From positions 989,153 through 1,053,152 of the forward strand of contig OZ250185.1 of the NCBI GenBank assembly GCA_965238265.1: a stretch of 64,000 bases of DNA, written 5' to 3'. A program made the translations under genes and the position numbers. Source of the stretch: Chloroflexota bacterium. GTDB taxonomy: Bacteria > Chloroflexota > UBA11872 > UBA12225 > JAJDUF01. Of the stretch, positions 6,731 through 36,167 are shown piece by piece. Under the pieces are notes generated by a model that worked only from the letters and a program-made list of their open reading frames with translations, made no database searches and was not told the DNA's origin. Each line of letters opens with the position of its first letter. Positions within the stretch are counted from its first letter, which is position 1.

Positions 6731-7004
6731 GGTTGTCGTCCTTGCTATGGGGTATCCTTAACTAGAACGGATGTCCAGAAGCGAGGTTGTGCAACTACAC
6801 GCTAACGGGGATTGGGCAACTCATGCACCGGCTTGTCGTCCATGGTTACTTGCGCTCCGGTCCCATCCCGGCCCGGAGCGACCACTACCTGAAACAGCAC
6901 ATCCTCAGTGATGACCGAGACGCATAGGGATTTACTTACTTGAGTGACCAGCCGAAGGTCATCCAAACTGGTACAATCGGACGGCCACAGGCCATAGGGA
7001 TAAG

Positions 7005-7087
7005 TGCGGTAGGTGGGACTCGAACTCACACGGCCACAGGCCACGTAGCTCCTGACTACGCGCGTCTACCAATTCCGCCACTACCGC
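7005..7087 (-). tRNA. tRNA-Leu-like class II tRNA sequence (possibly a pseudo-tRNA or att remnant). It has a 7-bp acceptor stem (GCGGTAG / CTACCGC), a Leu-type D-arm (GGCGGAATTGGTAGAC), a long variable arm and a T-loop (GTTCGAGTCC). The anticodon loop reads TCAGGAG, one nucleotide short of canonical UUCAGGU. The T-stem has one mismatch and no CCA is encoded.
   Basis: By-eye fold of the reverse complement of 7005-7087. The sequence resembles E. coli tRNA-Leu(CAG) through the D-arm. No tRNAscan was run. Confidence 0.4.
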
Positions 7088-7282: not shown

Positions 7283-9928
7283 CTAGAGTCGGCGCAGCCC
7301 CCGGCGGTCGTAGCGGCAGCGTCGCTCGCCAAGGGGGAACTCGAATCCGTCACCGTCCGGCGACGGTACTACCGACTCTGGTTCCTTACCGGACGGCAGC
7401 CAGTCCATCCGCAACGCCAACTTGTCAATCTGCTGCGAGCTGTCGAACGGGCTGGGCTGCGGGGGATCGAGGATTACGTCTAGCCGGTCGTCGCCGAGGC
7501 GCGTGCGTATCCGCTCCTCCTTGCCTGCAAAGGCGATGCCCTGATCGAGGAAAGTCTTGCAGCGCTCAATGACGACATGCTGGCCAGTGACGTTGTCCGC
7601 GATTCTCGCGCCCTCGACCTCGTTTGCATGGACAATCCAGTCCTCGCCCATTCCCCGCGTAATGGCTTTCAGCGCGCCCGGATGCGTGGCCCGCTCCACC
7701 AGCCGCCGGTTCATCTCCGGGATGCGCCACTCGGGATATTCGTCAATCAGCCGCCGCGTCGCTTCCAGTATCCGCAAGTCCTCGTACACATGGCCGTGTG
7801 GCCCCAAGCCGTTCGCGTTCGGCGTGCGCTCCAGCAATGGGGCGAGGTCGTTGTCCGGCGGCGTCAGGACGGTGCAGGCGGGCGTCGTATGGCCGGCCGG
7901 CCGGTCGTGGTGCTCGTGCCGATGGAGGCGGCCGATGCGCTGGAGCAGCACGTCCGCCGGGCAGAGGTCGGTAATCAGCAGGTCCGCGTCAATATCCAGC
8001 GACTGCTCCAGCGTTTGCGTGCCGACGACGATATGTCCACCGCCGGGCGGCTGTTTGCCAAGCTGCCGTTCCACCTCCTCATCCAGCAACCGGCGGTCCG
8101 CGGCGGCGAACCGGCCATGATGCAGCGTTGGCTTGCCGCAGACGGTGAACAGCAGCCCGGCGTCGGCGGGGCCGGCCAGCTCTTCTATCGCTTGCTGGGT
8201 ATTGATGGCGTAGTCAACGGTGTTGCGAACCACCAGGACCTTTGCACCGGCACGGGCGGCCGTCAAGGCGCGGTGGGCGGTGTCGTCGAAGTCGTGCATC
8301 CTGGAAACCGCCGTGATATGGACGCGCTTGCGCTGGTCGTTCTCGTTGGCCGCGAGGACCGCTTCACGGCCGTCTCCCAGTGTGGTGACCGCCGGGTATG
8401 CGGTGTTGATCGCGTCATCCAGCGAGAGGGACGGGGCCTCGCTGGTGCGGCGCGGCCGGAAGAGCCAGCGCAAGCGGGCCGCCGAGCCGAGCGTGGCGGA
8501 CATGAGCAAGGCGTAGCCGCCGGCGCCGATGTGGGCAGCGAGCAATTGCTCCAGAATGGCGCTCATGTAGGTGTCGGAAGCGTGAACCTCGTCTACGACC
8601 AAGAGATTGCGCGCCAGGCACGCGGCCCGCATATGGGCGTTCTTGACTTGGAGCGCGCCCAGCATCGCCTGGTCTACGGTGCCGACGGCGATCTGGGCAG
8701 CGAGGAACCGCTTGGGGTTCTCGGCAGCCCACGGTCTGTCGCGGTTGTAGTCCGGCAATTCCACGCCGGCGGCATCCGCGTCAGGTTCGTAGCCGGGGAC
8801 GGCGAGCACCACGGGCGGCCTGTGCTGTGGCAGCAGCTTGCCGATGAAGCGCTTGACGCGCCCGTGGATCTGGACGGCGGCCGCTCGCGTGGGCAGGGCG
8901 AAGTAGAGGCCGTCCACCAACTGTCGCTCGTACATCTTGGCAAAGCGCCAGAGCGCGGCCTCCGTCTTGCCGGAGCCGGTTTCGGACTCGATGATGACCA
9001 GCTGCTGATCCAGCGGCGTGCGCTGTGCAGTCGCTTGGATGGCGTTCGGCGTGGGTGAACCGGGTATGTCGAACAGCTCTCCGAACTCCGGTACGCGAGT
9101 AAAGCCGTTCCGCTGACCGAGTAAGTCCAGCCCTATCGCGCCGATGGCCTGCTTCGCCTGTCGCTGGGCCGCCTCGAAGTAGTCGTCCCGGTGTTCGTCA
9201 ACAAACGGGAACCAGTCCTCGTTGGAGCCAATCCAGTCGGCCCAGTTGCACAGTCCCAGGAACATGTGCTGGAAGGCGGGAGCGGACGGCAGTGGCGGGG
9301 CACCAGAGTCGAACGCCGCCGGGAACCATTGGCGCACCAGCTTGCCGATCCGCGCGACGCAGCGGCGCGGGTGAAGCTCGCCAAAGGAGCACCAGACGCG
9401 CGCGTTCTCCGACCGGCTGTCATGCAGATTCAGCGGCTCACCGTGATGCGACAGCGCCGCGACGAATAACGCACACGCGGTCACGCCGCCATCGCTATCC
9501 CAGGACAGAACGTCATCATCCCATCCCAGCGCCTCGAAGAACCACGCGGCAGTTTCCCCGTCCCTGCCAGTAAGCACGGGTACTAGGTCTGCCGTGTGTC
9601 CGGTGCGCGGTGGTTTCCTCTTGTTCGACAGGTCTTCCGGGCGCCAGATTCGCGCCTGGAAGCCGACGTTTACCTTGCCGATATCGTGCAGGGCAGCGAA
9701 GACAGCCAGACGCGCAGCGGTTGCGTCGTCGAGGTGGTCGAAACCAGCGGTCCAGGCCAGCCGGTTCCGGATGATCGGTTGGGCCAGCAGTGCCTCGAAG
9801 CAGGCGCCGACATCGGCAAGGTGGTACTCGAGCAGGTGAATGTCCTCCGGACCCCGTTGCCGGCCAGGGGCCGCCTTGGCCCAGAACAGCCTGGTGTAGG
9901 CCGGTGTGCCCTCTACCCGGCCGACCAC
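7283..9928 (-). CDS. cas3: Cas3 HD-nuclease / SF2 helicase (type I-E). A GTG start is predicted at 9928, overlapping the vapC stop.
   Basis: The 881-aa ORF has an N-terminal HD domain (...HLLEYHLADVGACFEALL..., HD motifs), helicase motifs (GSGKTEAAL Walker A, DEVH-type motif II) and a C-terminal domain. Confidence 0.88.
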   Translation of the reverse strand: MVGRVEGTPAYTRLFWAKAAPGRQRGPEDIHLLEYHLADVGACFEALLAQPIIRNRLAWTAGFDHLDDATAARLAVFAALHDIGKVNVGFQARIWRPEDLSNKRKPPRTGHTADLVPVLTGRDGETAAWFFEALGWDDDVLSWDSDGGVTACALFVAALSHHGEPLNLHDSRSENARVWCSFGELHPRRCVARIGKLVRQWFPAAFDSGAPPLPSAPAFQHMFLGLCNWADWIGSNEDWFPFVDEHRDDYFEAAQRQAKQAIGAIGLDLLGQRNGFTRVPEFGELFDIPGSPTPNAIQATAQRTPLDQQLVIIESETGSGKTEAALWRFAKMYERQLVDGLYFALPTRAAAVQIHGRVKRFIGKLLPQHRPPVVLAVPGYEPDADAAGVELPDYNRDRPWAAENPKRFLAAQIAVGTVDQAMLGALQVKNAHMRAACLARNLLVVDEVHASDTYMSAILEQLLAAHIGAGGYALLMSATLGSAARLRWLFRPRRTSEAPSLSLDDAINTAYPAVTTLGDGREAVLAANENDQRKRVHITAVSRMHDFDDTAHRALTAARAGAKVLVVRNTVDYAINTQQAIEELAGPADAGLLFTVCGKPTLHHGRFAAADRRLLDEEVERQLGKQPPGGGHIVVGTQTLEQSLDIDADLLITDLCPADVLLQRIGRLHRHEHHDRPAGHTTPACTVLTPPDNDLAPLLERTPNANGLGPHGHVYEDLRILEATRRLIDEYPEWRIPEMNRRLVERATHPGALKAITRGMGEDWIVHANEVEGARIADNVTGQHVVIERCKTFLDQGIAFAGKEERIRTRLGDDRLDVILDPPQPSPFDSSQQIDKLALRMDWLPSGKEPESVVPSPDGDGFEFPLGERRCRYDRRGLRRL

Positions 9929-10338
9929 GGATTCATTACCTCAATCCCACAGCCGGCAAAGTCATCCACATCCCGGGTCGCAACCCGTGCCCCTCGGGAG
10001 CGGGCAATCGCTGCGATCTGGCAGTCGGCCTGATTGATCGGCCGGCCAGCGGCACGGCGATCCGCCGCGATCACCGCGAATGCTCGGGCGGCCGCACTGT
10101 CGAAGGGCAAGATACGGTCGGCGAATAGGACACCGAAGGCACGCTCGGCCGCGGCAGCCAGACCGTGCCGCCGTCTTCCACCGGGCAACAGTGCGATGCC
10201 GCTGCGGATCTCCGCCTCAGTGACAGCGGTCACGAATAGGGTGCTCGCCAGCTGCTGGTCCAGCCAAGCAAGGACCTCCGGCTGCGGGTAGTCCCGCATC
10301 AGTTCCGAGACAACATTGGTATCCAGAACGATCATCAC
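9913..10338 (-). CDS. vapC: PIN-domain toxin VapC/FitB-like (copy A)
   Basis: The 141-aa ORF carries the four conserved PIN acidic residues (IVLDTNVV, TEAEI, DCQIAAIA, TRDVDDF). Confidence 0.85.
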   Translation of the reverse strand: MMIVLDTNVVSELMRDYPQPEVLAWLDQQLASTLFVTAVTEAEIRSGIALLPGGRRRHGLAAAAERAFGVLFADRILPFDSAAARAFAVIAADRRAAGRPINQADCQIAAIARSRGARVATRDVDDFAGCGIEVMNPWSAG

Positions 10339-10345
10339 CGTTGGC

Positions 10346-10630
10346 TCAGTCGAACCGGGGCGGTTCCCGCATCGGTTCCCGCGGCGGGATATCCAGCTCT
10401 ACGCTGCCGAAAGGCTTGAAAAGCTCGTGGATGGCTGTACCGAGGTTTCTTACGGGGGCTTTCTCCTGCCCGAGCGCGGCTCGCAGGATGTCATGCACCT
10501 CCTCTTCCAGGGAGTGGCCATGCTGGGCCGCCCGGCGGCGGAGGCGCTGCTGTAGGCTCTCGTCGAGGTTACGGACCGTGATACTGGCCATGCTCGTACC
10601 TCCGTCTGTCAACTCATTCCATCGTACCAC
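10346..10630 (-). CDS. vapB: VapB/FitA-like antitoxin (copy A). The probable true start is the internal Met at about 10591 (MASITVRNLDESLQQRL...).
   Basis: Small ORF immediately upstream of vapC that ends 8 nt before the vapC start. Its FitA-like N-terminus is typical of a plasmid-stability-protein antitoxin. Confidence 0.75.
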   Translation of the reverse strand: MVRWNELTDGGTSMASITVRNLDESLQQRLRRRAAQHGHSLEEEVHDILRAALGQEKAPVRNLGTAIHELFKPFGSVELDIPPREPMREPPRFD

Positions 10631-10715
10631 GACTGCACCGCAAGCAATTGGCCGGCCGAAGGCGGCGGGCGTCGTAGTCCAGAATGGAGAGCGGATTAGG
10701 GGTTCCGCGAGTATG

Positions 10716-10750
10716 GGTAGTGTTGCCTCACTCTCTCCGCTCGCCTATAA
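10716..10750 (+). promoter_or_regulatory. Near-consensus sigma70-like promoter TTGCCT-N17-TATAAT inside repeat copy A. It faces rightwards, antisense to the recombinase fragment. An identical copy lies at about 26507-26541.
   Basis: Motif read directly from the sequence (ttgcctcactctctccgctcgcctataat). Function unknown. Confidence 0.35.
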
Positions 10751-10788
10751 TTGCCGGGCGCAATGACCGGGGCGCTGGGCTTGGGAAC

Positions 10789-11240
10789 CTACAGGGGCAC
10801 CACCAATTCAAACGTGGTACTGCGTACAGTCCCCTCAGGCCCACCAGAATGTACTGTACTGCGAACTCGCCCATTCAGGGCGATCTCTGCGGCGTCCGCT
10901 CCACCTATCGGAGAGTCTTCCGGCGTGGGTATGGAGTAGACGATGGCGGCCCTGCCGGGCTTGACCTCGATCTCCTTGACGAAGGGCCGGACGAAGACCC
11001 TGGTCTCCGTCAGTTCGCTGGTCTTCAGGAAGTCGCTCATCTCCTCGGCGAAGGCGGCGATGGTGTCGGCGCTGTCGAGGAACTGCCGCCGCTCTGCCAG
11101 CAGCCCTCTGGCCTCCTCTGCGGCGACCTCCAGCTTCTCCTTGCGCTCCCGGTGCTCCCTGATGCGCTCGGAGGCGTCGGCCATCTCGATGTCGGTGGTC
11201 TCGATGACCTGCCGGATGCGGCCCAGCCGCCGCTTGGTCG
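10789..11240 (-). pseudogene. C-terminal fragment (~150 aa) of a large serine recombinase: coiled-coil plus the C-terminal ...FVKEIEVKPGRAAIVYSIPTPEDSPIGGADAAEIALNGRVRSTVHSGGPEGT... segment. The N-terminal catalytic domain is absent.
   Basis: The C-terminal half of ORF 10789-11778 resembles the conserved tail of large serine recombinases, whereas its N-terminal 180 aa are low-complexity nonsense. Confidence 0.45.
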
Positions 11241-11536
11241 AGGATGCCCCGGAGAAGGAGGTCCACCGCGAGCGGCTGAATACCACCGTGGTCGCCCTGG
11301 ACCTCGACGACGGCGAGATCACCGACATCGCCGCATAGCTCAGACGGCTCACTCTGAGCCGCAACACGCAGCAGTCGCTGTTCTCTGAGCTGAGTTCATG
11401 GCCGAAGAGCCGGTCAAGCCCAAGGGCCGAAGCCGCAAGGCCCAGCCTACGTCGATGTCCATGTTCGAGTGGGCGCTGACTCTGGAATAGGAGCGCGAGA
11501 CGGTCGGCGCGGGGCGCTAGGCCGAATACAGGGGGA

Positions 11537-11572
11537 GGACACCGCGATGATGCGGTGTCCTCCCCCTCCTGC
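11537..11572. repeat. Perfect 15-bp-stem hairpin GGGGGAGGACACCGC-gatgat-GCGGTGTCCTCCCCC. It is followed by a 30-bp motif (catgtatgcggcctttttgcgtttcagggtc) that recurs in diverged form at about 11958-11990.
   Basis: Read directly from the sequence. It may be an att-site or terminator remnant next to the recombinase fragment. Confidence 0.5.
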
Positions 11573-12707
11573 CCATGTATGCGGCCTTTTTGCGTTTCAG
11601 GGTCTTTGAGGCTTTGGCCGAGTATCGGTTGGAATCTCTCACACAGCCCGGTTGGATAATCGGACTGGTCGTGTATGAGAGCGTAAGCGGATTCCAAGCG
11701 GTAGGCAGTAATCCAGCGTTTCGGAGTAATCCAGCATATGGGCAGTTCATGGAGAACTACCCGCCAACTATCTTCCAAGCGACACTAGTTGTCTAACACT
11801 CTAGCATTGATAGGTAACGGAGTTACGCTTGGTCACAATCACCGTAGGGGTGGGTTTCAAACTCGCCTTATCGGCGTTAGGACACAAATCCTGCATATGC
11901 TGTCCATACCACGCCAATCCCGACTGCCCATCATTTCAAAGTTTTTCGTCTACTAGGCCATGTGTGCGGGCCTTTTTCGTTTCAGGGCCTCCGTCCATGT
12001 ATGCAGCCCTCGCCCGGCCTCGGTGCCCGGTGGCTTCCCACCCGCCGCGCGGGGTGTGATCATCCTGTCTACCAGGATGCCGACGCCGCTCGCCCGGCGG
12101 AACGTCTTGCGAGGGGGGCGTGTGTGCCCTCCCTTTTAGGACCCGCAAATCACGACGGTGTCACCGGTGTAATAGACGTGTACAGGAATCTGCACTGGAG
12201 TCCGCCGGGTGCTAGAGGGGTCGTTTGCCCACGCTACCAGATAGAAAACGGGGGCCACCGCGGGTCGCATGGTGCCATTCCAGCAAGCACTTGGGTACCG
12301 GGGCTGGTTCCAAGGCGATGGCCACGCCGCGGCTAGGGGTGGTGGCCAAGTGCCCCAGAGAAGGATGGCCAACATTGGCCACGCCGGAATTGGGGCAAAA
12401 TGGGGGCCACCGCGCCTGGACACCGCTCCCCACCGCCTGGCGCACGGGCAACCGGAGGCGGTGTGGCGTCTGTGGCAGGTGCTCACGCTGGGTGTGTGGT
12501 GGTCGGAGCCACCGCTGACGAGTGGCCACATGGGAGCAAGCACTTTAGGCTGGGAGATGCCGAAGCAGTTGCCACCGCCGGTCGCCCACGAGGGGTACCC
12601 CTGCCCCCGGTGAGCAGTGGCTCAAGTATCACGCCTTGCGCTCCTGCACGCCGCTTCAGCAGCCGGGAGGCCCTGATCGAAGTGCGCCACGCGCTTTGAC
12701 CGGCACC

Positions 12708-15844
<3,137 letters not shown>

Positions 15845-15925
15845 GGCGTCCGTCCTGCCCCGGACATGACATGGTCATTCCAATTGGGCAGCTGGCTCTT
15901 TCGCTGTAGCCCTATGTAGTCGTTG

Positions 15926-16306
15926 TCACGGTGCCGCTGAACGCTCTTCAATGATGACTTCGCCGTCGGCCCATGTTTCCAGCGTTACGCTACTGTCCCA
16001 GAGCAGATCCATTCCAAGCAGCGGGACACTATCCGATTGCAGCACCAGCGCATCAGCCAAGCGTCCGTGCCAGGATACCGTAGCACGGTAGGTATTGAAT
16101 TCGAATGGCTCCCCATTGGCCAACTCGAAGATTCGATAACCTGCCGAAGGAAGTCCCAACCGCCGAATGGCATCCGGGGGTAGTGTCAAGTAGCCGGTGA
16201 ATCCGGTGTCCAAGACGACCTCCAATTCTTGGAGGCGGTCCTCGCTGTCCATAACGGCTAAGGTAATCAAGGCTTGTTGGTACTGGTTTACTTTTCCCCT
16301 AATCAT
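15926..16306 (-). CDS. Retropepsin-like (clan AA) aspartic protease with a DTGF motif (VLDTGFTGYL)
   Basis: 126-aa ORF with a single D-T-G active-site motif followed by F, the size expected of a homodimeric retropepsin. Its ATGA start overlaps the stop of the upstream small ORF. Local GC is about 52-54%. Confidence 0.65.
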   Translation of the reverse strand: MIRGKVNQYQQALITLAVMDSEDRLQELEVVLDTGFTGYLTLPPDAIRRLGLPSAGYRIFELANGEPFEFNTYRATVSWHGRLADALVLQSDSVPLLGMDLLWDSSVTLETWADGEVIIEERSAAP

Positions 16307-16572
16307 GGCTTGAACGTCAAGCTCCCGCCGCCCATGCTGTAGGCAGCGCGATAACCGACCCGCAGTCCATAGATGACGGCATCCGACCGCCGTTGCTGCA
16401 ATCGGCGCGTGGCTGTTGCGTCGTTGGCATCCAACTCGTAATCGCCGGTTTCGATGTCAATGACCACGAACTTGCCGTGTTCCTGCGGCTCCACCAAGCG
16501 GCGTATCTTTTCCCGGTAGATCGCCTCGCCGCGAGCGCATGCCTCCTTGGGGCTATAAGTCCGGGTTGTCAT
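16303..16572 (-). CDS. Small 89-aa protein of unknown function, translationally coupled to the aspartic protease
   Basis: An ORF with a 4-bp ATGA overlap onto the downstream protease gene. No fold was recognised by eye. Confidence 0.5.
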   Translation of the reverse strand: MTTRTYSPKEACARGEAIYREKIRRLVEPQEHGKFVVIDIETGDYELDANDATATRRLQQRRSDAVIYGLRVGYRAAYSMGGGSLTFKP

Positions 16573-16639
16573 AGCATCCTCCCGTTGGCAGTCGCCGATG
16601 ACGCCGCGTGTAACGGCTCCATACCAGTATACCGGGCGC

Positions 16640-16860
16640 TAGTTGTCAGACGGTCCGCTGCCGGGCCCCAGCGTCGGCCCGGCCGGGCGGGTCAGCCGGC
16701 GGAAGGAGCCATACAGCGCATCGGCGGGAGGTCCGCTCGGCGCCGGGGGCGTCGGGGGCGATGTCCGGCCCGTGCGCCACCCGCCAGCCGAGGGCGGCCA
16801 GCCAGTCAAGGGCGGCGGCCTCAACGTCGGCTTCGGTGAGGGTCATTGGCGCGTTCACTG
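16640..16860 (-). pseudogene. Decayed ~220-bp duplicate of the hsdR 5' end: about 85% identical to 15598-15850 with a ~60-bp internal deletion and frameshifts
   Basis: ORF 16646-16858 ([42 protein letters not shown]...) parallels the HsdR N-terminus, and the nucleotide alignment to 15598-15850 is visible by eye. Confidence 0.7.
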
Positions 16861-17745
16861 GTTTCTAGCCTTTGCCCACATCAGTGATGACCGTCGAAAG
16901 GCTGACATTTTGGCCGTGTACCGATAGGCATTAGGCGGTTCTAGGTGGGAATTCGAGAGGTGTTCGATCAAGGCACCATACAGAGCAGCCAAATGCGTAC
17001 CTGGTATCGAACCGCCTTCTGTCTCCGCGCCTTCGGCGAAGAACCAGTCATAATCCGATTGTGCAACTTCAACAGGATATTTGTGAATTGAGATGCCTTC
17101 CTGCCCATCCATTTTCCCGTAGCATATGATTCCTTTGTTCAAGAGCACCGACATATTAGGCAGCAAACTAGGATCAACCGACGAGAGAAGAGTCATCACT
17201 TTTCCGAATTCGAAATCGCCACCATCTATACATAGAAGAAATGCATATAGGCTGTTCAAATATTTGTTCGGGCTGGCTAGCACGATATCATTCATTGATG
17301 TGGAGTCCTTAAGTCCTCCATGGAAGGTGTTTTCTACAAGAGGTCTATCCATTCCAGAAATCTGTTGCAAAACGTCATGCAGTTTCTCATAATAACGTTC
17401 GGACTGATAATAGGTTGATTTCACCTCACCGATTGCATATACGGAGGTTACGGGTACGTACTCGGTGCCATCTTTGGTAGTCAGCAACGACGGGAGGCTG
17501 AAATTGTCGGCGATGATTACATCCAATTGCGGGCTGACCAGATTGCTTGAATCGATGAGGTGACCGCTTGTAACATAGTAACGAGGCGGCAACATACGTT
17601 TCAAGTAGTCACGAACCGATTGTTCAACCTGGTTTCCAGCCGCTCTAATGTCTGTGGGGTGAATTCGAATGGCCTCCTCGCGTGCTCGCTGTAGGGCTTC
17701 CGCATCCGATTTGAAGATTCCTGCGAGGTTTAGGGTACTTGGCAT
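16855..17745 (-). CDS. Hypothetical 296-aa protein with a candidate PD-(D/E)xK nuclease motif (QLDVIIAD ... YAIGEVKST). It lies between hsdS and the hsdR remnant, and its GC (~48%) is well below that of its neighbours.
   Basis: The motif spacing (D ~30 aa before E-x-K) is consistent with a restriction-endonuclease-like fold. The composition shift is visible by eye, and no other homology was recognised. Confidence 0.45.
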
Positions 17746-17770
17746 CTACTTGTCCCTTTATTATACGTAC

Positions 17771-19375
17771 TCACAATGCCCCCACCTCACCCGACACCAG
17801 CCTCGGCAACAGCGCATCCCGCAGGTCGGCCAGGGTGCGTGATTCCGTTTTGGTTGACTCCATCTTGTCGAGGATGGAGCCAGCACTCATGGAAAACCAG
17901 TCCAACACGTCAGTTCCAGCAGTGGGAATTGCTACTTCAGTTTCACTAACGACCTCTGGACGAACCGCCGGATATGCTGCGCCATCCGCTCGGTGAGCCA
18001 GCCACTCAATATTGTCTGGGGCTGTCGCTGCAAGATATACCAACTCCCGGAACCGTGGGTTCAAAGGCCGAAGCACGGCGAATCCGGTGCTTCCCGTCAG
18101 ACCATCGTTTCCTATAAGTGAGTAAGAACCGTTGCCCGGTCGAACTGTCCCAACTATGGTGTCTCCAGAGCGAAGGGCCCGTTTTGCCCTACTAGGGGCA
18201 TCCTTCCAAGAAAAATGTTGCGTGGATTCGATTACTCCCCACTTTGTGTTCGCCAAGTCAACGTATTCGATATCTGTGGGGCTATTCGTTCTGGACCAAG
18301 ACTCAGGGTTGAGATTCGAAAACTCCCCGACCGCCTTCACCTCCCACCCCGCCGGTATCTCCCCCAGCTCCGAGGCCACCAGGCGCTCCGGGAACAGCGC
18401 CCACAGCTCCGGCGGCAGGTACGGCGCGCGACCGGCCAGCTTGGCGCGCGTGGGGCCGAAGTCCACGAACCAGTCCTGGAAGAGGGCGCGGGCCATGGCC
18501 TCCAGCGTCTCGTTCATCCGGCGGTTGAGCGCGATCTTGTCGTCGAGGGTGCCGAGGACGTGGGCGATGGCGCGCTGTTCGGGGAGGGGAGGTGCAAGTA
18601 CACTCAACGACTGGATCATTGCCTTCGTAAGGGCGTTTCGAGTTCCGCCTGATCCTGCCCAAGACAAGAGCATGGTCTGTGTCTCAGGACAAGCGAGGAA
18701 ATAGCGCAGGAAGCGCGAGTCTAACTGGTTTGGGTCTGTCCGAATGATAGCGACGTGCTGGTTCACCCGTGCCGGAAGCACTCCGGGATCAACCTGGCAC
18801 ACACGCGCCACCGAATCGCCGGTAATGTTCAGTAGCACATCATCTGGAAAGACCTCGACGTTCCGCAGGCCGTGCGCCTGTTCATCACTGATATAGGCCA
18901 ACCCCTCGTGGCTGAACCCAGCATTGTAGACGTTCTGGCTACGAATCAATGCGTAGGGTCCGTCTTCCAGGTAGACATCCCGGCCCCCTCGTGGCGTGGC
19001 TCCACTGCCAATTTTGGTGCAGGCATCTCCAAGCACTATTTCCCGCCACTCGCTCGCCGCTGCCGATTGCTCGTCCGTGCCTTGCTGCAACACTACGTAG
19101 TCGCGCTCTATCACCGCCCGGAAGCGCTCGGGGATCGTGTGCCAGTCGTGTACGTCCACCCGCATGGGCAGGTCCGATTCCTCAAAGGCTTCCTTCAGCC
19201 GACCGAGTACTCCCCACTCCAGCGGTCCCCCGCCGACAACGGCCAGGTCCAGGTCGGAGTAGTCCTTCGCGGTCCAAGTCGCACGGGAACCGAAGGCGCG
19301 TATCTCGCACGCCGGCACGTGCTCCGCCAGGATGCGCCGGACCGTGCCGAGGTGGTGCGGGTTGAGGTCAATCAT
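17771..19375 (-). CDS. hsdS: In-frame fusion of a minimal nucleotidyltransferase (MNT, residues 1-~105; GSRATWTAKDYSDLDLAVV) to a type I specificity subunit HsdS (residues ~112-534, two target-recognition domains)
   Basis: A single 534-aa ORF. The N-terminus has the GS-x9-DxD nucleotidyltransferase motif. From SEWREIVLGDACTKIGSGATP onwards it is a canonical HsdS with central and C-terminal conserved helices (LPEQRAIAHVLGTLDDKIALN...). No ATG separates the two parts. Confidence 0.75.
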   Translation of the reverse strand: MIDLNPHHLGTVRRILAEHVPACEIRAFGSRATWTAKDYSDLDLAVVGGGPLEWGVLGRLKEAFEESDLPMRVDVHDWHTIPERFRAVIERDYVVLQQGTDEQSAAASEWREIVLGDACTKIGSGATPRGGRDVYLEDGPYALIRSQNVYNAGFSHEGLAYISDEQAHGLRNVEVFPDDVLLNITGDSVARVCQVDPGVLPARVNQHVAIIRTDPNQLDSRFLRYFLACPETQTMLLSWAGSGGTRNALTKAMIQSLSVLAPPLPEQRAIAHVLGTLDDKIALNRRMNETLEAMARALFQDWFVDFGPTRAKLAGRAPYLPPELWALFPERLVASELGEIPAGWEVKAVGEFSNLNPESWSRTNSPTDIEYVDLANTKWGVIESTQHFSWKDAPSRAKRALRSGDTIVGTVRPGNGSYSLIGNDGLTGSTGFAVLRPLNPRFRELVYLAATAPDNIEWLAHRADGAAYPAVRPEVVSETEVAIPTAGTDVLDWFSMSAGSILDKMESTKTESRTLADLRDALLPRLVSGEVGAL

Positions 19376-19790
19376 TGCGCGCTTCCAACGCCGCCAGCAG
19401 CAGCCGCGCGTCGTGTACGAACTCCCTGGTGGCGCTATAGACCAGCGCGGCCTTCGCCTCGTCGTAGATGTGGGAGGTGACGTTCCTGGCTTCGTGATGC
19501 TGCATCCAGAGGTCTACGTCGGGAATGAGCCGATTTTCGGCCGCGAGGCGGAATAGCTGCCGCCGCGTGACGCCATCCGCGACGTCGGGGCCGACGTAGG
19601 TCCTCAACCAGCGCGCCATCAACTTCCAGGAAAGCTCGTAGGTGACCTCGAAGTTCTGTATAACGCCGGAGCGAATGCCGTTCCGCTCGACCTCGCTCAA
19701 CTCTCCCATGCGCGCGTCATTTTCGCTGACCGCCAGCAGGTCTGCGAGCGCTCTGATCGCGTTTCTCAGGTGGTCCAGCTCCAGTGGCAT
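19368..19790 (-). CDS. HEPN-domain protein (HI0074-like nucleotidyltransferase substrate-binding family; R-x4-HxY motif RNVTSHIY). It is the HEPN partner of the MNT fused to hsdS.
   Basis: 140-aa ORF whose stop overlaps the start of the MNT-hsdS ORF, and which carries the HEPN motif. Confidence 0.7.
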   Translation of the reverse strand: MPLELDHLRNAIRALADLLAVSENDARMGELSEVERNGIRSGVIQNFEVTYELSWKLMARWLRTYVGPDVADGVTRRQLFRLAAENRLIPDVDLWMQHHEARNVTSHIYDEAKAALVYSATREFVHDARLLLAALEARND

Positions 19791-19863
19791 GATCTTCCTC
19801 GTTACTCGCGGGCGTGCTCGTCCGCAACCCCCAGGCGTACCATGCTGATGTCAATGGCGCTGG

Positions 19864-20301
19864 TCATTCCCAAGTCTCCCCGGTCATCGTCTGGTACAGC
19901 CCAATGGCATCGTCAACAAAGTCATCCACCAGCGCCAGGGCTTGCTCCGCTTTTTCGCCGCTGTAGTCGTGGGTCGTGTCAATGCGAGCCTGTATGTATT
20001 CGTTCCATTGTGGGAAGGGAGACGAGAGCAGATTGTTCGCATCGGCCAAACGGAAGATGGGCCGGGGACTGCGGGGAGCTTCAGCAACGCCCAATTCTTC
20101 TTGCAGGTAGCGCCGGAGCACTTTATGCAGCGCATCGTAGCAGGTCTCGAACCGCTGAATCACCGATTCGGCCATTCCCTCATGGATAAATTGCGGCAGC
20201 GCCGGGTCAAGGTGTTTCCGATGCTCATGCTGCAATTCCAGGTTCTTGAGGGATTTTCTGAAGTTGCCGTAATCAATCATTGCCGTGCCCCGCTCACGCA
20301 C
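19864..20301 (-). CDS. HEPN-domain protein, second copy (R-x4-HxY motif RIDTTHDY)
   Basis: 145-aa ORF immediately downstream of the interrupted MNT at 20304-20656. Its GC is about 52%. Confidence 0.7.
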   Translation of the reverse strand: MRERGTAMIDYGNFRKSLKNLELQHEHRKHLDPALPQFIHEGMAESVIQRFETCYDALHKVLRRYLQEELGVAEAPRSPRPIFRLADANNLLSSPFPQWNEYIQARIDTTHDYSGEKAEQALALVDDFVDDAIGLYQTMTGETWE

Positions 20302-20303
20302 TA

Positions 20304-20656
20304 GAGCCTGCCCGTACTCAGCCGCACCAGGTCTGCCTCAATCTGGTCTCCGGCCTCATAAAGCGGTGTCCTAGTCGCCTCGACCGAGCGCCGGAAATAG
20401 GGATTCTTGATGGCCGAGCCGACCACCAAGTCCACCGTCCGGCCAAACAGCCGTTCCAGCGCTTCCCGCAGGCCGAAATACGTGTCGAAATACGCGCCGG
20501 TCGGCAGTGGCCGGAAGGTGACGACGAAGTCGAGGTCGCTGTGCCCCGGTCAGTACCGGCCGGTGGCGGCCGAGCCGAACAGGTCGAGCCGCCGGACCCG
20601 GTAGCGCCGGCAGAGCTGCTCCAGCTCGGCGGCGTGCTCCGCAATCACCGGGATCA
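20304..20656 (-). pseudogene. MNT-type nucleotidyltransferase (HEPN-cognate antitoxin family) interrupted by an in-frame TGA at 20550-20552 within the active-site region (LFGSAATGRY*PGHSDLDFVV)
   Basis: The reverse-complement translation runs in one frame from MIPVIAEHAAELEQLCRRYRVRRLDLFGSAATGRY, through a TGA, to PGHSDLDFVVTFRPL...GRL*. It ends 3 nt before the HEPN start. Confidence 0.65.
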
Positions 20657-20680
20657 TTGCGAGTGCTCCTCTCCCATCAG

Positions 20681-22276
<1,596 letters not shown>

Positions 22277-22518
22277 AGGCCATCTCTCCCCGCAAGCTCC
22301 AAGCTGCCCTGCAACCGGGCAGCTAGTATAGGTGGATTCTACTATCAGGTTGACGGGCCGTGGTCATGGTGCTCCCCTCCCGCGCCTGGTTGCAGCCATT
22401 TCCGGCTGCCTCCGCACAGCCCCGACCCACATGGTCTTGAGTGCTATCCAAGCATATGCGCCGAGACATCTCCGGTCAATGCGAGCTAGGCGGTGCTTCC
22501 CAGCAAAGCTGGTGGGGC

Positions 22519-24294
22519 CTATGTGCCTTCCCAATGCAACGAAGTACGGCGCTGATCTAGTTCGACAATGACCTTGGCAAAGAGGAATCCGTAACGCTCA
22601 ACGCTAGGATAGTCCTGCGGCTCGCCATTCACACGCAGCGTCAGCGGGCATCCCCGCGGCCTATGCACAAGGATGCAGGCATCCTGGAGCTGCGTCTCCG
22701 CTGTAAGGTGGATGCTGTGTCTGTCGTCGAAGGTGAACCGCACGGCGCGGCGTGCTCGCTCCCAAGCATTGATCTCGTAGGACTGCCACCACGGCAGCCC
22801 GCGTGTGCTGACGAGCTGTACGAGGTCTGTCATCGCAGTTGGTACGCCTGGACGGAGGACATGGTTGGGGTGGAAGAGATAGTGTGCAATACCGTAGTGT
22901 CGCTGCACGCGGTCGAGCAGTAACGGGCCTGCTGAGTAGGGCGCGAGCCAGCCCGGCCGGGCGTCAGGATCACTGACCGGGTGCATGAGGTCTTGGGTCA
23001 GCAGATTCACTTCCAGTACGTCGCTGCATACTCCCGAATCCGGATCCATGGGAAACCAGGGATGGGAGCTCCCCACGAGATACCCCGTGTTGCCGCGCCG
23101 GTTTGGACCCTTCGTTTGATCAGTAGCGACGCCAAGTTTGGTGAGCCAGTGGAAGAACTCCAAGTACCCTTCCCAGCGCAGACCATGGTTCTTGTTGGTG
23201 ATTACGGCATCCAGCCCAGCTTCCTGTTTAAGGTACGACCACTGGAAGCGTAGGTCCTCAAAGCGCCACCGCGTATGCTCCATCTGGGTGCGCGCATCGA
23301 AGTGGAGCGCGAGCTCGCTCCCCGAGGACCGCACGGCGTCGTAGAACTGGCGGGTGTAGCCGGGGTAGAGGATGCACCAGGTTGACTTGATCCCGAGCTC
23401 CTGCACGCGCTCGAGCATGTGCCACGCCTTCTCGATCTGGTTGCCATCGGAGTCATGCGAGAGGTGCGCGATCGCTGTGAGGTCACCGGGCCAGTACCAC
23501 AGCAGTGGAAACACCGCGCGGGCGTGCGTGGCGCAATAGAAGACGCTGCGCAGGAGAATGGCGCGCAACTCATCACCAATCGCTTCCAAGAAGAAGGGGA
23601 CTTCGGTGTCGTGTGTACGATCCCGGTTCCAGTCCAGCACCATGCCGTCTTCAACGTTGAACCTGCCGTCGTCAATATCGGCAGTACCATCCGGAGCAGG
23701 CACGCCATCCTGAAAGATGGGAATGCCTTGCAACATGTGCAGGATACACCAGGGCAAGTCGGCGGCCGTAAATAGAACAAGCCCCCGGCCCTGCCGGTGC
23801 TCTGAAATCCCCACACCAACCTGTTTGCCATCGGCGTCCGTCAACTCCGCCAGGACGGTTGCGCCAGAAACCTGGGCCGTGGCGGCGTCCCAGACGTGGA
23901 GTGAACTGTGGAGGTCGCGGACGACCACGTGATGTGGCTGCGTAACACGCAGAAATCCTTCGTGCAACCCCGACTGCGACTGCACACCACAGAGGTCGTC
24001 GAGGCCGCTGGTGCCTCCCAAGGCAACCAAGGCCCCTCCGCTGGCGACGAACCGGTACATCGCTTCTACATCTGGTGGAGAAGTATGGTGAGGGAGGAGG
24101 ACCACTCTGGTATCGAGGAGCGCTTCTGCGAGACCGGCAGAGTCGATGCGCGCGAACGGGATGCCGGCATGGCCCAGCACCTCCAGGATGTACCGCGAGC
24201 GGGGATGGTATGCACCATCCTGCAGATAGACGCCGATGGAGCCGGGATGGCCACGGATCATGGCTGTGTATCTCCTACAGCGGGGCCGCTGCAA
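22519..24294 (-). CDS. Hypothetical 591-aa protein. The N-terminus may be a class-I glutamine-amidotransferase-like / ThuA-like domain, and the C-terminus a polysaccharide-deacetylase-like region. It heads the co-directional island.
   Basis: A long ORF with only weak motif resemblance. The call is by eye. Confidence 0.3.
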   Translation of the reverse strand: MQRPRCRRYTAMIRGHPGSIGVYLQDGAYHPRSRYILEVLGHAGIPFARIDSAGLAEALLDTRVVLLPHHTSPPDVEAMYRFVASGGALVALGGTSGLDDLCGVQSQSGLHEGFLRVTQPHHVVVRDLHSSLHVWDAATAQVSGATVLAELTDADGKQVGVGISEHRQGRGLVLFTAADLPWCILHMLQGIPIFQDGVPAPDGTADIDDGRFNVEDGMVLDWNRDRTHDTEVPFFLEAIGDELRAILLRSVFYCATHARAVFPLLWYWPGDLTAIAHLSHDSDGNQIEKAWHMLERVQELGIKSTWCILYPGYTRQFYDAVRSSGSELALHFDARTQMEHTRWRFEDLRFQWSYLKQEAGLDAVITNKNHGLRWEGYLEFFHWLTKLGVATDQTKGPNRRGNTGYLVGSSHPWFPMDPDSGVCSDVLEVNLLTQDLMHPVSDPDARPGWLAPYSAGPLLLDRVQRHYGIAHYLFHPNHVLRPGVPTAMTDLVQLVSTRGLPWWQSYEINAWERARRAVRFTFDDRHSIHLTAETQLQDACILVHRPRGCPLTLRVNGEPQDYPSVERYGFLFAKVIVELDQRRTSLHWEGT

Positions 24295-24464
24295 TGCCCT
24301 GGGTTAGCACCAGGCTTCGCGAAGCAGACGGACTGCGGTTTGCTCAATCATTACGCCGGCCTCTGCGGTGTGCCGGCTGTGCGGTCCCAAGTTGACCTCG
24401 TAGGCGCCCTCGTCGAAGGCACGTGACGTCGGGAAGTAGCCCTGCCAGTCGTTCGCATAGCCGG

Positions 24465-24596
24465 CTATTGCCGTGACTGGAATTCTTCATAGAGGTCGAC
24501 GCCTGGCAGGTCTGGGGTGAACCGAATCTCCTTTTGCCGTTTGTTCCAGGATTCGGGGCCTTCCAGGATCCATATCATGTGTTCAGGGTTAGCCAT
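24465..24596 (-). CDS. Small 43-aa ORF (MANPEHMIWILEGPESWNKRQKEIRFTPDLPGVDLYEEFQSRQ) with a strong RBS (GGAGGAAG 7 nt upstream of the ATG) in a lower-GC patch
   Basis: The RBS and ORF were read from the sequence. Function unknown. Confidence 0.3.
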   Translation of the reverse strand: MANPEHMIWILEGPESWNKRQKEIRFTPDLPGVDLYEEFQSRQ

Positions 24597-25703
24597 GAGG
24601 TACTTCCTCCGAAGTCTGTATACTGTTCGTGCTATATGGATGTCGTCCCCATGATGAACCTGCCGACGGCTCGCGTGCAATCCCTGGCTACCGCGACGTA
24701 AGTTAATGCCAGTCATGGGACGGCGTCATGACTACGCCCGACCGGAAGGCGGCGAGGATCCTGCCCTATCACGTTCGGCGTCCTGTCCCACCTCTAGATA
24801 CGCGTCCAGTGACCTCCACCACCTAACTCTCCAATTCCCTACGACGCCTGGCGAAGAGGCCGCGCCAGCCGAGGACCTGCACATTCCCCGTTTCGTCCTC
24901 AATGATCACGAACACCGTGCCGTCCCGCCCGCGCGGGTGCCGCTTGGCCACAGGCTAGCCAATCACCGTAACCCATTCGTCATCGCCGCCCTTCTCCACT
25001 TCCCCGCCGGGAATACGCCGGGACGCAAGCCTGGTCTGACGAACTCCACGAGGCAGCCTCTTGGGTACAATGCGGTTTCCAGTTGCCTCTTGGGGAAGTC
25101 AACATGACAGGGGAAGGCTTAGCCTGCCGGCGACCCGGTTTGACCCCAATAAGGCTGCACACACATAAGCTCCCCCATAGGGCCCCCTAGAATTCGCAGT
25201 ACAACAGTACGCTCTGGCCCACAGAATCAAACTGCTGTGCTCGTTGCATACAAACATCGGAGCAACAGCACCCAAGTATCGGTTAGTCAATGGTCTGGAA
25301 CTGGAAAGAGCACAATCCCGGCGGATGCTGAACTGAGAGAGGTCGCGAGAAGGACGACTCGGCGTGATCTTTATGCCGAGCCAGCCGACCCTGGTGACCC
25401 GGCGTCGCCGCTACTGATGATGCCTAGGATTGGACTGAGGGCAAGACGCACGCCCTATCAGTTCCGGTTCTTCATGTAGGATGGCAAGTTGTCGGGAAAT
25501 CTGCCAGGAGCCCATCCTCTCAAGATACGATAAGAGACTCGCAGCAACCGCAGTCCATGGGCGTCCGCATCGTCACCGAGAACAGCACCAGCCTGCGCTT
25601 TGAGGACAGCCGGTTCGAGAGTGAGTAGCCCGCCCTGCCCTGGCCGCTTCTCCGGCGGCGAGACGGGGTATGATGGCACGCCGGCGGTTCGCGAAGGCGC
25701 TTA

Positions 25704-26129
25704 CTACCCGGCCGACCACGGATTCATTACCTCAATCCCACAGCCGGCAAAGTCATCCACATCCCGGGTCGCAACCCGTGCCCCTCGGGAGCGAGCAATC
25801 GCTGCGATCTGGCAGTCGGCCTGATTGATCGGCCGGCCAGCGGCACGGCGATCCGCCGCGATCACCGCGAATGCTCGGGCGGCCGCACTGTCGAAGGGCA
25901 AGATACGGTCGGCGAATAGGACACCGAAGGCACGCTCGGCCGCGGCAGCCAGACCGTGCCGCCGTCTTCCACCGGGCAACAGTGCGATGCCGCTGCGGAT
26001 CTCCGCCTCAGTGACAGCGGTCACGAATAGGGTGCTCGCCAACTGCTGGTCCAGCCAAGCAAGGACCTCCGGCTGCGGGTAGTCCCGCATCAGTTCCGAG
26101 ACAACATTGGTATCGAGAACGATCATCAC
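25704..26129 (-). CDS. vapC: PIN-domain toxin VapC/FitB-like (copy B), identical to copy A
   Basis: Its translation is identical to ORF 9913-10338. Confidence 0.85.
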   Translation of the reverse strand: MMIVLDTNVVSELMRDYPQPEVLAWLDQQLASTLFVTAVTEAEIRSGIALLPGGRRRHGLAAAAERAFGVLFADRILPFDSAAARAFAVIAADRRAAGRPINQADCQIAAIARSRGARVATRDVDDFAGCGIEVMNPWSAG

Positions 26130-26640
26130 CGTTGGCTCAGTCGAACCGGGGCGGTTCCCGCATCGGTTCCCGCGGCGGGATATCCAGCTCTACGCTGCCG
26201 AAAGGCTTGAAAAGCTCGTGGATGGCTGTACCGAGGTTTCTTACGGGGGCTTTCTCCTGCCCGAGCGCGGCTCGCAGGATGTCATGCACCTCCTCTTCCA
26301 GGGAGTGGCCATGCTGGGCCGCCCGGCGGCGGAGGCGCTGCTGTAGGCTCTCGTCGAGGTTACGGACCGTGATACTGGCCATGCTCGTACCTCCGTCTGT
26401 CAACTCATTCCATCGTACCACGACTGCACCGCAAGCAATTGGCCGGCCGAAGGCGGCGGGCGTCGTAGTCCAGAATGGAGAGCGGATTAGGGGTTCCGCG
26501 AGTATGGGTAGTGTTGCCTCACTCTCTCCGCTCGCCTATAATTGCCGGGCGCAATGACCGGGGCGCTGGGCTTGGGAACCTACAGGGGCACCACCAATTC
26601 AAACGTGGTACTGCGTACAGTCCACCTAGGCCCACCAGAG
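25705..26640. repeat. Direct repeat copy B (see 9915-10835). It carries the second vapB/vapC pair and a 17-codon recombinase 3' end.
   Basis: Near-identical to copy A. Confidence 0.9.
26137..26421 (-). CDS. vapB: VapB/FitA-like antitoxin (copy B)
   Basis: Its translation is identical to ORF 10346-10630. Confidence 0.75.
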   Translation of the reverse strand: MVRWNELTDGGTSMASITVRNLDESLQQRLRRRAAQHGHSLEEEVHDILRAALGQEKAPVRNLGTAIHELFKPFGSVELDIPPREPMREPPRFD

Positions 26641-26879
26641 TTTGCCTTTGATGCTCGGACAGAGGTAGGTCCCTAGCCGGCCGTTGTGGCCCGCGGCTCC
26701 AAGCGCCTCCTGGCCGCCTCTCTCCAGGCGCTGCTGTCATTTGTCGCTTTGCGGGTCTGCGCTCACGATGATTCGATCCGCACCTGCTCGCCCAGTCCGA
26801 GGTCGGCTATAGCCATTATGCCTCGTGCCCAGCACCGTTAGCTCGTCGGTGACGATGCTTATGGGCAGCTCCGAAGCGC

Positions 26880-28034: not shown

Positions 28035-28057
28035 TACGTGTCCTCCATGACACAGTG

Positions 28058-32109: not shown

Positions 32110-32190
32110 GAGCTATTCCACCTACACCGGATTGGTGCTCGGTACTCGGCCCTCAGCTTCCTCTCGTACCGGTTGCTGCGAGCTGACTGC

Positions 32191-34200: not shown

Positions 34201-34371
34201 GACCAGTCACCCTCCTGCGGTGGGTTGTTGCCTACCGATTGCCCTCGTCTCTGCTCATGGCAGTTGAAGCCCTCGACCCTATCCTAGTGGGAGCAAGGAA
34301 GCCTCTGCCTCAGACAGACCCAGACCAGGCGGGGGCGAGGAGCAACACAGCTGACCCGCACAGTGCTCATG

Positions 34372-35889: not shown

Positions 35890-36167
35890 GACCGCACTAT
35901 ACCAGTAGTGACAGCATTTGCAACAGTCCCGCTGTGGGCTGTCAGGTGGACAAAGACCTGGTCGTTAGGTACTATTTCCGACACTGGCCCTCGTGGAAGG
36001 GGGTGTATTGTGCTGTCTTCCGATGGGGTCAAGTTGCAATTGACCGGCTGGAGGCGGGGAAGGTTAGGATGGGGTGGTTCTTCCGAAGACCGCTTGTGCC
36101 GGCCTCCCTCACCCCACTAGCCTCACCCACAAAATGGGGGGATGGGCTTTTGCGATAGCTTCAGGGA

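Follow-up and report, generated by a model that had tools for sequence, protein, structure and literature searches.

The 64,000-nt stretch of Chloroflexota DNA analysed here (contig OZ250185.1, positions 989,153 to 1,053,152; hereafter the window, numbered from its first letter) possesses a 15.8-kb restriction-modification (RM) island, named E1, which extends from ~26639 to 10849 on the minus strand, between the right edges of the two copies of a long direct repeat, and is followed by a CRISPR-Cas block, named E2. Comparison of the window with itself by BLAST joins copies A and B (Table 1) into one repeat with an offset of 15,791 bp, and ungapped comparison of the two 936-nt copies gives 6 mismatches (99.4% identity). 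Three of these (10003, 10251 and 10324) fall at synonymous sites in vapC; the remaining three are grouped beside the right edge (~10837–10841). The left edge coincides exactly with the vapC stop codon. Both copies contain a vapB–vapC toxin-antitoxin (TA) pair and the last 19 codons, with the stop, of the reading frame of a large serine recombinase (LSR), as well as a non-coding part which is considered below.

The proteins VapC-A and VapC-B are the same in the window, as are VapB-A and VapB-B. The antitoxin gene lies upstream in the same operon, with 10 nt between the vapB stop and the vapC start, and the pair is a predicted type II TA of the FitAB/VapBC kind. Its plan is that of FitAB/VapBC systems, a ribbon-helix-helix (RHH) antitoxin followed 10 nt on by a PIN toxin, here of 140 aa; VapC scores below the curated cut-offs of NCBIfam, whose VapC models match it at sub-threshold level (best 47.6 bits against a cut-off of 140). 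Exact-protein look-up of the window VapC (141 and 140 aa) returned no match, and the genome scan yielded two relatives, 70% identical in a Chloroflexota metagenome-assembled genome and 59% identical in one of Acidimicrobiia, neither of which has an LSR or a tRNA nearby. A plasmid megablast of positions 7000–28500 produced weak hsdR/hsdM matches only.

Closer relatives of the window were found by exact-protein look-ups, which gave about a dozen long-read metagenome contigs, 92–99.9% identical to the window and referred to by handles such as L005 (ctg554114) and L012 (ctg460561). The gene vapB-A is called at 81 aa in seven of them. The first gene of E2, cas3, begins inside the vapBC operon of copy A: the vapC-A stop occupies 9913–9915 and the cas3 GTG start 9926–9928, with GAGGT before it, so that the two genes overlap by 16 nt. 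No other canonical start would preserve the conserved N-terminus of Cas3, and the overlap is kept in 7/7 related cas3-bearing contigs. As the start and the Shine-Dalgarno sequence of cas3 lie inside vapC, cas3 probably shares the transcript of the vapBC operon and is translationally coupled to it, which would imply co-expression. Downstream of cas3 follow Cse1, Cse2, Cas7, Cas5, Cas6e, Cas1 and Cas2 (by the Pfam families of the genes called in 99%-identical contigs) and a CRISPR array at 1–332, which starts at position 1 of the window and has repeats every 61 nt; by this gene content the locus is assigned to type I-E. ARAGORN additionally calls an 84-nt tRNA-Pro(AGG) at 7004–7087, between cas3 and cse1, as it does in L008 and L017; Rfam has no tRNA there at its gathering score, so the call is probably false.

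Table 1. Features of the repeat copies, of island E1 and of the start of E2, in window positions
Feature	Positions	Strand	Remarks
cas3 (HD + helicase)	7283–9928	-	Pfam; first gene of the predicted type I-E block after copy A
Repeat copy A	9913–10848		vapC-A, vapB-A, divergent promoter region, decayed tRNA-Ala copy, att core
vapC-A, PIN toxin, 140 aa	9913–10335	-	Pfam PIN (PF01850) 3.8e-16, above gathering score
vapB-A, FitA-like RHH antitoxin, 81 aa	10346–10591	-	Pfam FitA-like_RHH (PF22513) 7e-18
Promoter-like TTGCCT-17-TATAAT	10723–10751	+	upstream of decayed tRNA copy A; twin at 26514–26542
Decayed tRNA-Ala(GGC) copy A	10769–10846	+	3′ CCA end = start of att core
Putative att-type junction A	10831–10848	-	3′ end of the E1 LSR / TGGTGGGCCTGAGGGGACT
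C-terminal remnant of the E1 LSR	10789–11424	-	coiled-coil and C-terminal region only
Non-coding degenerate stretch	11430–12700		LSR remnant to hsdR; no family matches
hsdR, inactivated	12708–15844	-	Pfam; split into 328 + 715/728 aa
89-aa ORF and 126-aa clan-AA aspartic-protease-like ORF	15926–16572	-	all below curated cut-offs
DUF6602, NucC-like PD-(D/E)xK nuclease	16855–17745	-	Pfam 2e-19; PADLOC PD_DExK and NucC
MntA-like nucleotidyltransferase fused to HsdS, 534 aa	17771–19375	-	
Two HEPN genes, HI0074 / NTase_sub_bind family	19368–20301	-	
hsdM	20681–22276	-	Pfam N6_Mtase 1e-105
580–591-aa ORF directly upstream of hsdM	22519–24294	-	conserved in all E1 copies
Second non-coding stretch	24300–25700		580-aa ORF to vapC-B
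Repeat copy B	25704–26639		left-end module of E1
vapC-B	25704–26126	-	protein same as VapC-A in window
vapB-B	26137–26382	-	
Decayed tRNA-Ala copy B	26560–26637	+	differs from copy A by 3 nt near 3′ end
Putative att-type junction B	26622–26639	-	unrelated flank / TGGTGGGCCTAGGTGGACT

Much of this had been proposed earlier from the letters of the window. The original prediction placed the repeats correctly to within 2–13 nt, and the analysis agrees with it on the vapB–vapC pair and recombinase 3′ end in both copies (the tail being 19 codons), on a longer recombinase fragment before copy A only (tblastn homology at 10831–11424), on RM, HEPN-MNT and protease genes between the repeats, where there are two non-coding stretches of ~1.4 kb, and on a vapC-A stop that overlaps the cas3 start. 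Its estimate of about three differences holds for the coding part of the repeat, and the total over 936 nt is six.

The recombinase of E1 survives as a C-terminal remnant. Searches with full-length homologues by tblastn place the homologous stretch at residues ~349–527 of 545, and the remnant is 49–57% identical to residues ~349–538 of three full-length LSRs (E = 1e-38 to 1e-46); residues 1–348 of the same homologues have no tblastn match anywhere in the window. The Resolvase catalytic domain with its nucleophilic serine, the Recombinase domain (PF07508) and the Zn-ribbon (PF13408) are absent from the window fragment, and its 179-aa ORF has no Pfam domain. Because no catalytic or DNA-binding domain of the LSR remains in the window, E1 is predicted to be incapable of self-excision; with the LSR truncated, any excision could only occur in trans. 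A 30-aa ORF (MAEEPVKPKGRSRKAQPTSMSMFEWALTLE) lies on the opposite strand beside the remnant (11389–11481, +) and is called in every haplotype. Just before it, at ~11235–11338 (+), is the C-terminal end of another shortened ORF, which marks the breakpoint where the LSR N-terminus was lost.

The last 19 LSR codons read antisense to a decayed copy of tRNA-Ala(GGC). Collinear alignment of this sequence, together with its upstream part, to tRNA-Ala(GGC) and its promoter gives z = 6.0–8.5, a level which 0/1000 shuffles reach; a local alignment of the LSR tail to tRNA-Ala is not significant, and significance is found only in the global collinear alignment that includes the promoter. This alignment supersedes a reading of the tail as mere last codons of the recombinase. 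The upstream TTGCCT-17-TATAAT matches a promoter at 10/12 positions (0.2 expected), both hexamers are invariant in 9/9 aligned homologues, and the region shares homology with the promoter region that precedes the genuine tRNA-Ala. More distant relatives contain copies, 81–87% identical, of the 156 nt from the core inwards, located before the sugar-utilisation cluster described below or beside tRNA-Ala(TGC); conservation spans the promoter-like site to ..GGCCCACCA and then ends. The sequences at 10769–10846 and 26560–26637 are rejected as functional tRNA or other functional RNA: there is no ARAGORN call and no Rfam match even at E <= 10, the minimum free energy is not unusual against shuffles (z = -0.14), and the acceptor pairing is lost in homologues. 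The non-coding part of the repeat is thus a decayed tRNA-Ala(GGC) copy with its promoter, facing opposite to vapB–vapC. The earlier description of the repeat as vapBC plus a recombinase tail named two parts that are both present and was incomplete with respect to this third one.

The right edge of the repeat also has a distinctive register. The 12-mer TCTGGTGGGCCT (minus strand) is found in the window at 10848 and 26639 only, and the same core occurs at both ends of E1 in L006. Both ends of E1 carry TGGTGGGCCT.., matching the 3′ end of tRNA-Ala(GGC) at 17/19 positions; the junction reads ..cattc/TGGTGGGCCTGAGGGGACT against TGGTGGACCTGGGGGGACT in tRNA-Ala. When the junctions are lined up, the CCA end of the tRNA falls at the same LSR codon, and junctions A and B are in the same register. 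Because this register is that of the LSR/tRNA junctions described in the next paragraph, we interpret the right edge of both repeats as an att-type junction belonging to a family of tRNA-targeting LSRs. At junction A, the core forms the centre of a 7-bp inverted repeat (GTACAGT..ACTGTAC), which is too short and was not used as evidence.

The LSR fragment has 569 database relatives, and the best 120 of these 569 are all short (131–265 aa), hinting that, within this data set, intact genes of this clade are rare compared with remnants or that gene callers split them. Among the same 120, conservation extends up to ..GGP and is followed by either a 'TVxxTxFE..' tail or a 'TRT..' tail, the latter being typical of an antisense tRNA T-arm. 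Relatives of the fragment were found in 12 JGI metagenome loci, in which the LSRs that were read end to end have ~530–620 aa; the one in L026 matches Resolvase (3e-33), Recombinase (3e-19) and Zn_ribbon (3e-13). LSR 3′ ends in these loci overlap the 3′ end of an opposite-strand tRNA by ~15 nt. At 10 loci the LSR ends exactly at the 3′ CCA of an opposite-strand tRNA (tRNA-Lys, Glu, Ala, Gln or Met); L026, L027 and L030 carry full-length LSRs and the others remnants. A rule that the tail is always followed by vapBC in this clade was considered and rejected, as L037 has another gene in this place and the 12 JGI loci have no vapBC.

Four contigs (L008, L015, L018 and L019) show a CRISPR array followed by an N-terminally truncated LSR that overlaps tRNA-Ala(GGC). 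This LSR is 49% identical to the E1 fragment and in L008 still possesses the Recombinase/Zn-ribbon DNA-binding domains. L017 and L020 differ in that the truncated LSR behind the array continues into a 'tail' and a phage-like element, not into the tRNA, a layout that fits continuing insertion at the tRNA-proximal end.

The order copy B, island, LSR remnant, copy A, cas3 is found in ctg554114 and ctg799790, and in ctg460561 as far as that contig reaches; at least three samples, assembled independently, show the two-copy layout, which is shared by about eight related metagenome haplotypes. The contig L007 was at first sight a haplotype without copy B and was rejected as such, since it merely begins inside the 580-aa ORF. 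A different arrangement is present in L006, where an E1 98.7–98.8% identical to that of the window has different flanks: the 10-kb sugar cluster is missing on the left, and on the right, the LSR remnant crosses the same core, enters another 'tail' sequence and is followed by a TatD gene, without vapBC-A and CRISPR-Cas. In this contig E1 has the core at both ends, no long repeat and a single vapBC copy. Three further contigs, 92.6% identical in the sugar cluster (L038, L040 and L043), lack both E1 and CRISPR-Cas, and L042 carries a 90%-identical vapBC on its own. The order in distant relatives is MR_MLE, two DUF3179 genes and Peptidase_M16, followed by an LSR scar, short and with an internal deletion, and by tRNA-Ala(GGC). 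An exact empty site for E1 alone was not found among the related contigs.

Comparison of haplotypes shows that the near-identity of the two copies is no mark of an insertion in the recent past. Between the window and L005, the closest two-copy haplotype, there are 84 differences in 20.4 kb: 60 in copy B, 7 in copy A and ~11 (plus one 6-nt indel) in the other 18.5 kb, which corresponds to ~0.06% in these flanks. The two copies within L005 are only 93.6% identical and mosaic. Copy B of L004, a contig whose sequence is covered only as far as hsdR, is 88% identical to copy A of the window. Copy B of the relatives shows mosaic divergence, and its vapC has become a pseudogene. All haplotypes compared are identical between the att core and about codon 27 of vapB; the divergent block comprises the 3′ half of vapB and the 5′ end of vapC, with a premature TAG in vapC, and L004 has a further block in mid-vapC, where ~35–40% of positions differ. 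L012 has a patch of this divergent allele in its copy A. Because the differences are blocky and the divergent patch reaches copy A of L012, we infer that the duplication predates these strains and that the copies exchange sequence. The 99.4% identity in the window points to recent gene conversion, which would have replaced nearly the whole of copy B; three bases at the right edge (AGGTGG) have stayed private to this copy.

Taken together, these data lead us to propose, with moderate confidence, that the region consists of head-to-tail degenerate LSR islands built on the 3′ side of tRNA-Ala(GGC), the left modules of which were gene-converted. E1 would comprise, in this order, a decayed tRNA-Ala, vapBC-B, the 580-aa ORF, the type I RM system with the HEPN/MNT, nuclease and protease-like genes inside it, and the last third of its LSR. 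E2 would begin at junction A with a decayed tRNA-Ala and vapBC-A, continue through the predicted type I-E cas operon and the CRISPR array, and, judging from 99%-identical relatives, end just outside the window in an N-terminally truncated LSR abutting the real tRNA-Ala(GGC). The 936-bp repeat would then be the left-end module common to E1 and E2. The att core of this LSR family overlaps both the terminal codons of the recombinase (..GGP) and the target tRNA at its 3′ end, so that every integration would leave a junction composed of an LSR 3′ end, the core and the left end of the next element. Newly arriving elements would have recombined with the att site nearest the tRNA, in the manner known from tRNA-targeted islands; E1 would have arrived before E2, and the junctions would have arisen by LSR site-specific recombination. 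With both recombinases dead, the structure would have been frozen, and the modules would subsequently have been homogenised by gene conversion. The segment between the repeats is accordingly a discrete inserted island with a decayed recombinase, as the original prediction had it. Of the excision that was expected from the repeats, self-excision appears impossible, as the catalytic domain is missing; deletion by homologous recombination would be possible, and none was observed.

Several observations weigh against this proposal. The LSR remnants of E1 and E2 are only 49% identical, and the left-end modules are 88–99% identical; independent elements should differ more in vapBC, so homogenisation or module exchange is needed. 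The truncated LSR at tRNA-Ala is of the same lineage as the scar in relatives without CRISPR-Cas, and it may belong to an older island, not to the CRISPR block. This LSR and the tRNA-Ala lie outside the window and are known from relatives only. The flank left of junction B differs among the window, L006 and L038-type relatives, and the two DUF3179 genes and Peptidase_M16 are missing in the window, so that further deletions with an endpoint precisely at the core have to be assumed. A search of the window for a remnant resembling an LSR to the left of junction B, and for a site resembling the core where the sugar cluster ends on its far side, found neither. The three variable bases by the core give no consistent crossover point, and no active element, circular form or empty site for the E1/E2 pair was found among the relatives. 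Finally, the single copy in L006 is 98.5% like copy A, so the divergent copy B blocks of other strains may be imports and not ancestral. Imports or not, recombination rather than insertion age would appear to set the identity of the repeats.

An alternative of a Campbell type, in which a circular E1 with a decayed tRNA and vapBC crossed over within the 936-bp homology with a resident module before cas3, predicts a geometry identical to the observed one. Homology between the two modules extends along their full length, they do undergo homologous exchange, and the exact end of the homology at the stop of vapC and at the core could be explained without two elements sharing a left end. However, such a crossover still requires a resident copy of the module whose right edge is itself an LSR att junction. 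A relative without the island and with a single vapBC beside cas3, which the original prediction expected, was not found among the related contigs. In L006, the 12-bp core delimits E1 at both ends and there is no long repeat, the signature of site-specific insertion, and because the short core alone bounds it there, we rate this explanation lower and consider it unlikely. Of the two insertion modes offered earlier, recombinase-mediated insertion followed by decay fits best with the att junctions and the L006 flanks.

It is also conceivable, and in our opinion improbable, that a local segmental duplication of the tRNA-Ala copy and vapBC, by unequal crossing-over or replication slippage, created the repeat and that the LSR remnant is there by coincidence. 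The pieces do exist as separate chromosomal sequences, because L042 has its vapBC with promoter near the same chromosomal position, with neither the tRNA-like part nor cas3, and L038–L044 have the tRNA-like element alone upstream of the sugar cluster. A coincidence is nevertheless difficult to reconcile with the right edge of both copies, which matches the LSR/tRNA register to the base, with the LSR remnant reading directly into copy A, and with the intervening 15 kb, which act as a single unit in L006.

A duplication or insertion that this strain acquired very recently, with the divergent copy B alleles as later imports and no conversion of B by A, would agree with the similarity of the single L006 copy to copy A, and the divergent blocks with their stop and frameshift mutations could stem from a decayed foreign paralogue. 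We regard it as quite improbable: the two-copy layout is common to haplotypes that differ by 0.06–1.2% elsewhere, making the duplication older, the presence of the divergent allele in copy B of L004 and L005 and as a patch in copy A of L012 requires exchange anyway, and copy B of the window retains its private edge bases. An artefact of assembly or consensus (reads of copy A used to build copy B, or contig ends that were collapsed), which the original prediction named as a possible source of the repeat and which is conceivable in long-read metagenome assemblies with several strains per sample, is most improbable, because the two-copy layout recurs in independent assemblies from other samples, while a 0.94-kb repeat is probably much shorter than the reads and the six differing positions include markers specific to copy B.

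The proposed head-to-tail islands carry a varied cargo. E1 encodes a type I RM system with HsdM and an HsdS fused to MntA, and its hsdR is not intact in the window: relative to the intact 1048-aa gene of L006 it has a 10-bp deletion at ~14941. As the identical split is present in a 57x contig, hsdR seems truly inactivated in this lineage, with hsdM and hsdS remaining, and the system would be methylation-competent at best. Residues 1–105 of the MntA–HsdS ORF form the MntA-like part, followed by a complete HsdS; this part is the sole MNT in the window (MntA model 31.6 bits against a cut-off of 60), and L004 carries an extra, free-standing MNT gene. A type VII (HEPN-MNT) TA, in which the HEPN toxin and the MntA antitoxin are separate proteins, is thus only a tentative possibility for the window. 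One PADLOC HsdS model also matches the N-terminal part of the 534-aa ORF. The slot between hsdS and hsdR is variable, with DUF6602 in the window, nothing in L004 and three other genes, including an FRG/TPR protein, in L006; a diverged duplicate of the hsdR 5′ end (16659–16843 against 15589–15838, ~82%) marks the insertion point. The large ORF upstream of hsdM, called as 580 aa in four haplotypes, has no match in Pfam, PADLOC or NCBIfam and is a candidate defence-associated gene. The non-coding stretch 11430–12700 is preserved at 98.8% in L006.

Left of copy B in the reading direction of E1 lies the 10-kb sugar-utilisation cluster (26643–36614), encoding a solute-binding protein (SBP), a phosphodiesterase, GH95, a sulfatase and MR_MLE and absent in L006. 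The decayed tRNA-Ala element precedes this cluster in the more distant relatives L038–L044, so the cluster may be an older island of a similar kind. On its 5′ side, outside the window, tRNA-Ala(GGC) has a second variable defence hotspot (L015, L018, L019, L038, L040 and L043), in which Shedu (SduA_C), PIN-TPR-GreABC, GmrSD plus HEPN, or a methylase is found depending on the strain; L018 possesses a second partial tRNA-Ala copy there. Other repetitive sequences occur further into the window. Two tandem paralogous segments of ~640 bp at 36433–37607, 81% identical, encode small proteins by a dCache gene and are represented by one copy in L006. Two families of dispersed G+C-rich repeats of 56–89 nt with internal palindromes (42618–42706, 45384–45472, 46825–46880, 48136–48191 and 62319–62374) resemble REP or MITE elements. 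Tandem repeats of 75 and 78 nt at 52697–54082, 66–88% identical, apparently belong to a coding region that shows a strong AT skew.

We tentatively suggest, as a possibility that we would not rate as probable, that the LSRs form a Chloroflexota-type clade which targets the extreme 3′ ends of tRNA genes (at least Ala, Lys, Glu, Gln, Met), has the core in its own last codons and an antisense, tRNA-derived P′ arm as tail, and ferries whole defence systems, among them a complete type I-E locus with a vapBC-hooked cas3. If this were true, and the clade active and undescribed, it would provide a defined vehicle for horizontal CRISPR-Cas transfer and serine integrases with naturally conserved, predictable tRNA target sites; should the clade have active members, sequence alone could suffice to predict their att sites. 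A complete type I-E locus in a recombinase-delimited, TA-headed island chain by a tRNA would offer a testable route of CRISPR-Cas gain, loss and retention. A caution also follows for similar loci: long near-identical direct repeats around an island need not date its insertion, as gene conversion can act between old copies.

Several known systems share features with this locus. In the Myxococcus phage Mx8, attP lies within the integrase gene and integration alters the C-terminus of the enzyme (intP/intX), a tyrosine recombinase. The crossover site in the recombinase 3′ end and the difference in C-terminal tail between free and integrated forms are shared with the LSRs described here, whereas the enzyme here is an LSR and its alternative tails are antisense to a tRNA or to tRNA-derived sequence. 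Tandem arrays of SXT/R391 elements yield hybrids. Tandem accretion of ICEs (integrative and conjugative elements), IMEs (integrative and mobilizable elements) and prophages is described in streptococci (PMC5357655, PMC7168690, PMC13651849). The arrays are reported to be head-to-tail, incoming attP recombines with a resident hybrid att site, and homologous parts of neighbours then recombine, all of which corresponds to the series proposed here; those elements are active and conjugative or mobilisable, in contrast to the immobilised remnants of the window, in which exchange takes the form of a putative 0.9-kb gene conversion.

The vapBC modules have two counterparts. Pairs of vapBC are interspersed in the cas gene cassettes of Sulfolobales and are proposed to help keep the cassette (PMC4390879). 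As in these archaeal cassettes, vapBC here directly adjoins CRISPR-Cas interference genes; the difference is that the system is a bacterial one of predicted type I-E and that the cas3 start and Shine-Dalgarno sequence lie inside the TA operon. In Shewanella, the composite island CGI48, located at tRNA-Trp, includes a HipAB TA, and composite islands are reported to be stabilised by TA modules (PMC8978831). That island and our locus have in common an operon of a type II TA at the edge of a tRNA-integrated composite island, nested or tandem; here, however, copy B is already a pseudogene in relatives, and stabilisation by vapBC may at most be supposed. The duplicated vapBC cannot protect E1, because deletion between identical repeats leaves one intact vapBC.

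The closest parallel is provided by the tycheposons of Prochlorococcus (bioRxiv 10.1101/2020.12.28.424599), which integrate successively at tRNAs, newcomers pushing older elements inward, and which show tRNA-derived repeats between neighbours, fragmented integrases, and defence and metabolic cargo. Integration at a tRNA, tRNA-derived spacers, broken integrases and defence cargo recur in the proposed E1/E2 series, in which no replication module or active copy is seen. Their scars are partial tRNAs of ~40 nt, whereas the putative scar here is a full-length decayed tRNA with promoter and TA operon (936 bp). In the literature searched, tRNA targets belong mainly to tyrosine integrases, plus a small minority of tycheposons, an LSR being present in 27/937 of the latter (bioRxiv 10.1101/2020.12.28.424599); every recombinase seen here is an LSR, with an att core that its own final codons overlap. 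To judge from the relatives of VapC and the LSR, the host in the present case appears to be of a Chloroflexota-like lineage. The locus as a whole belongs to a known kind, that of tRNA-associated, recombinase-built defence islands with TA modules.

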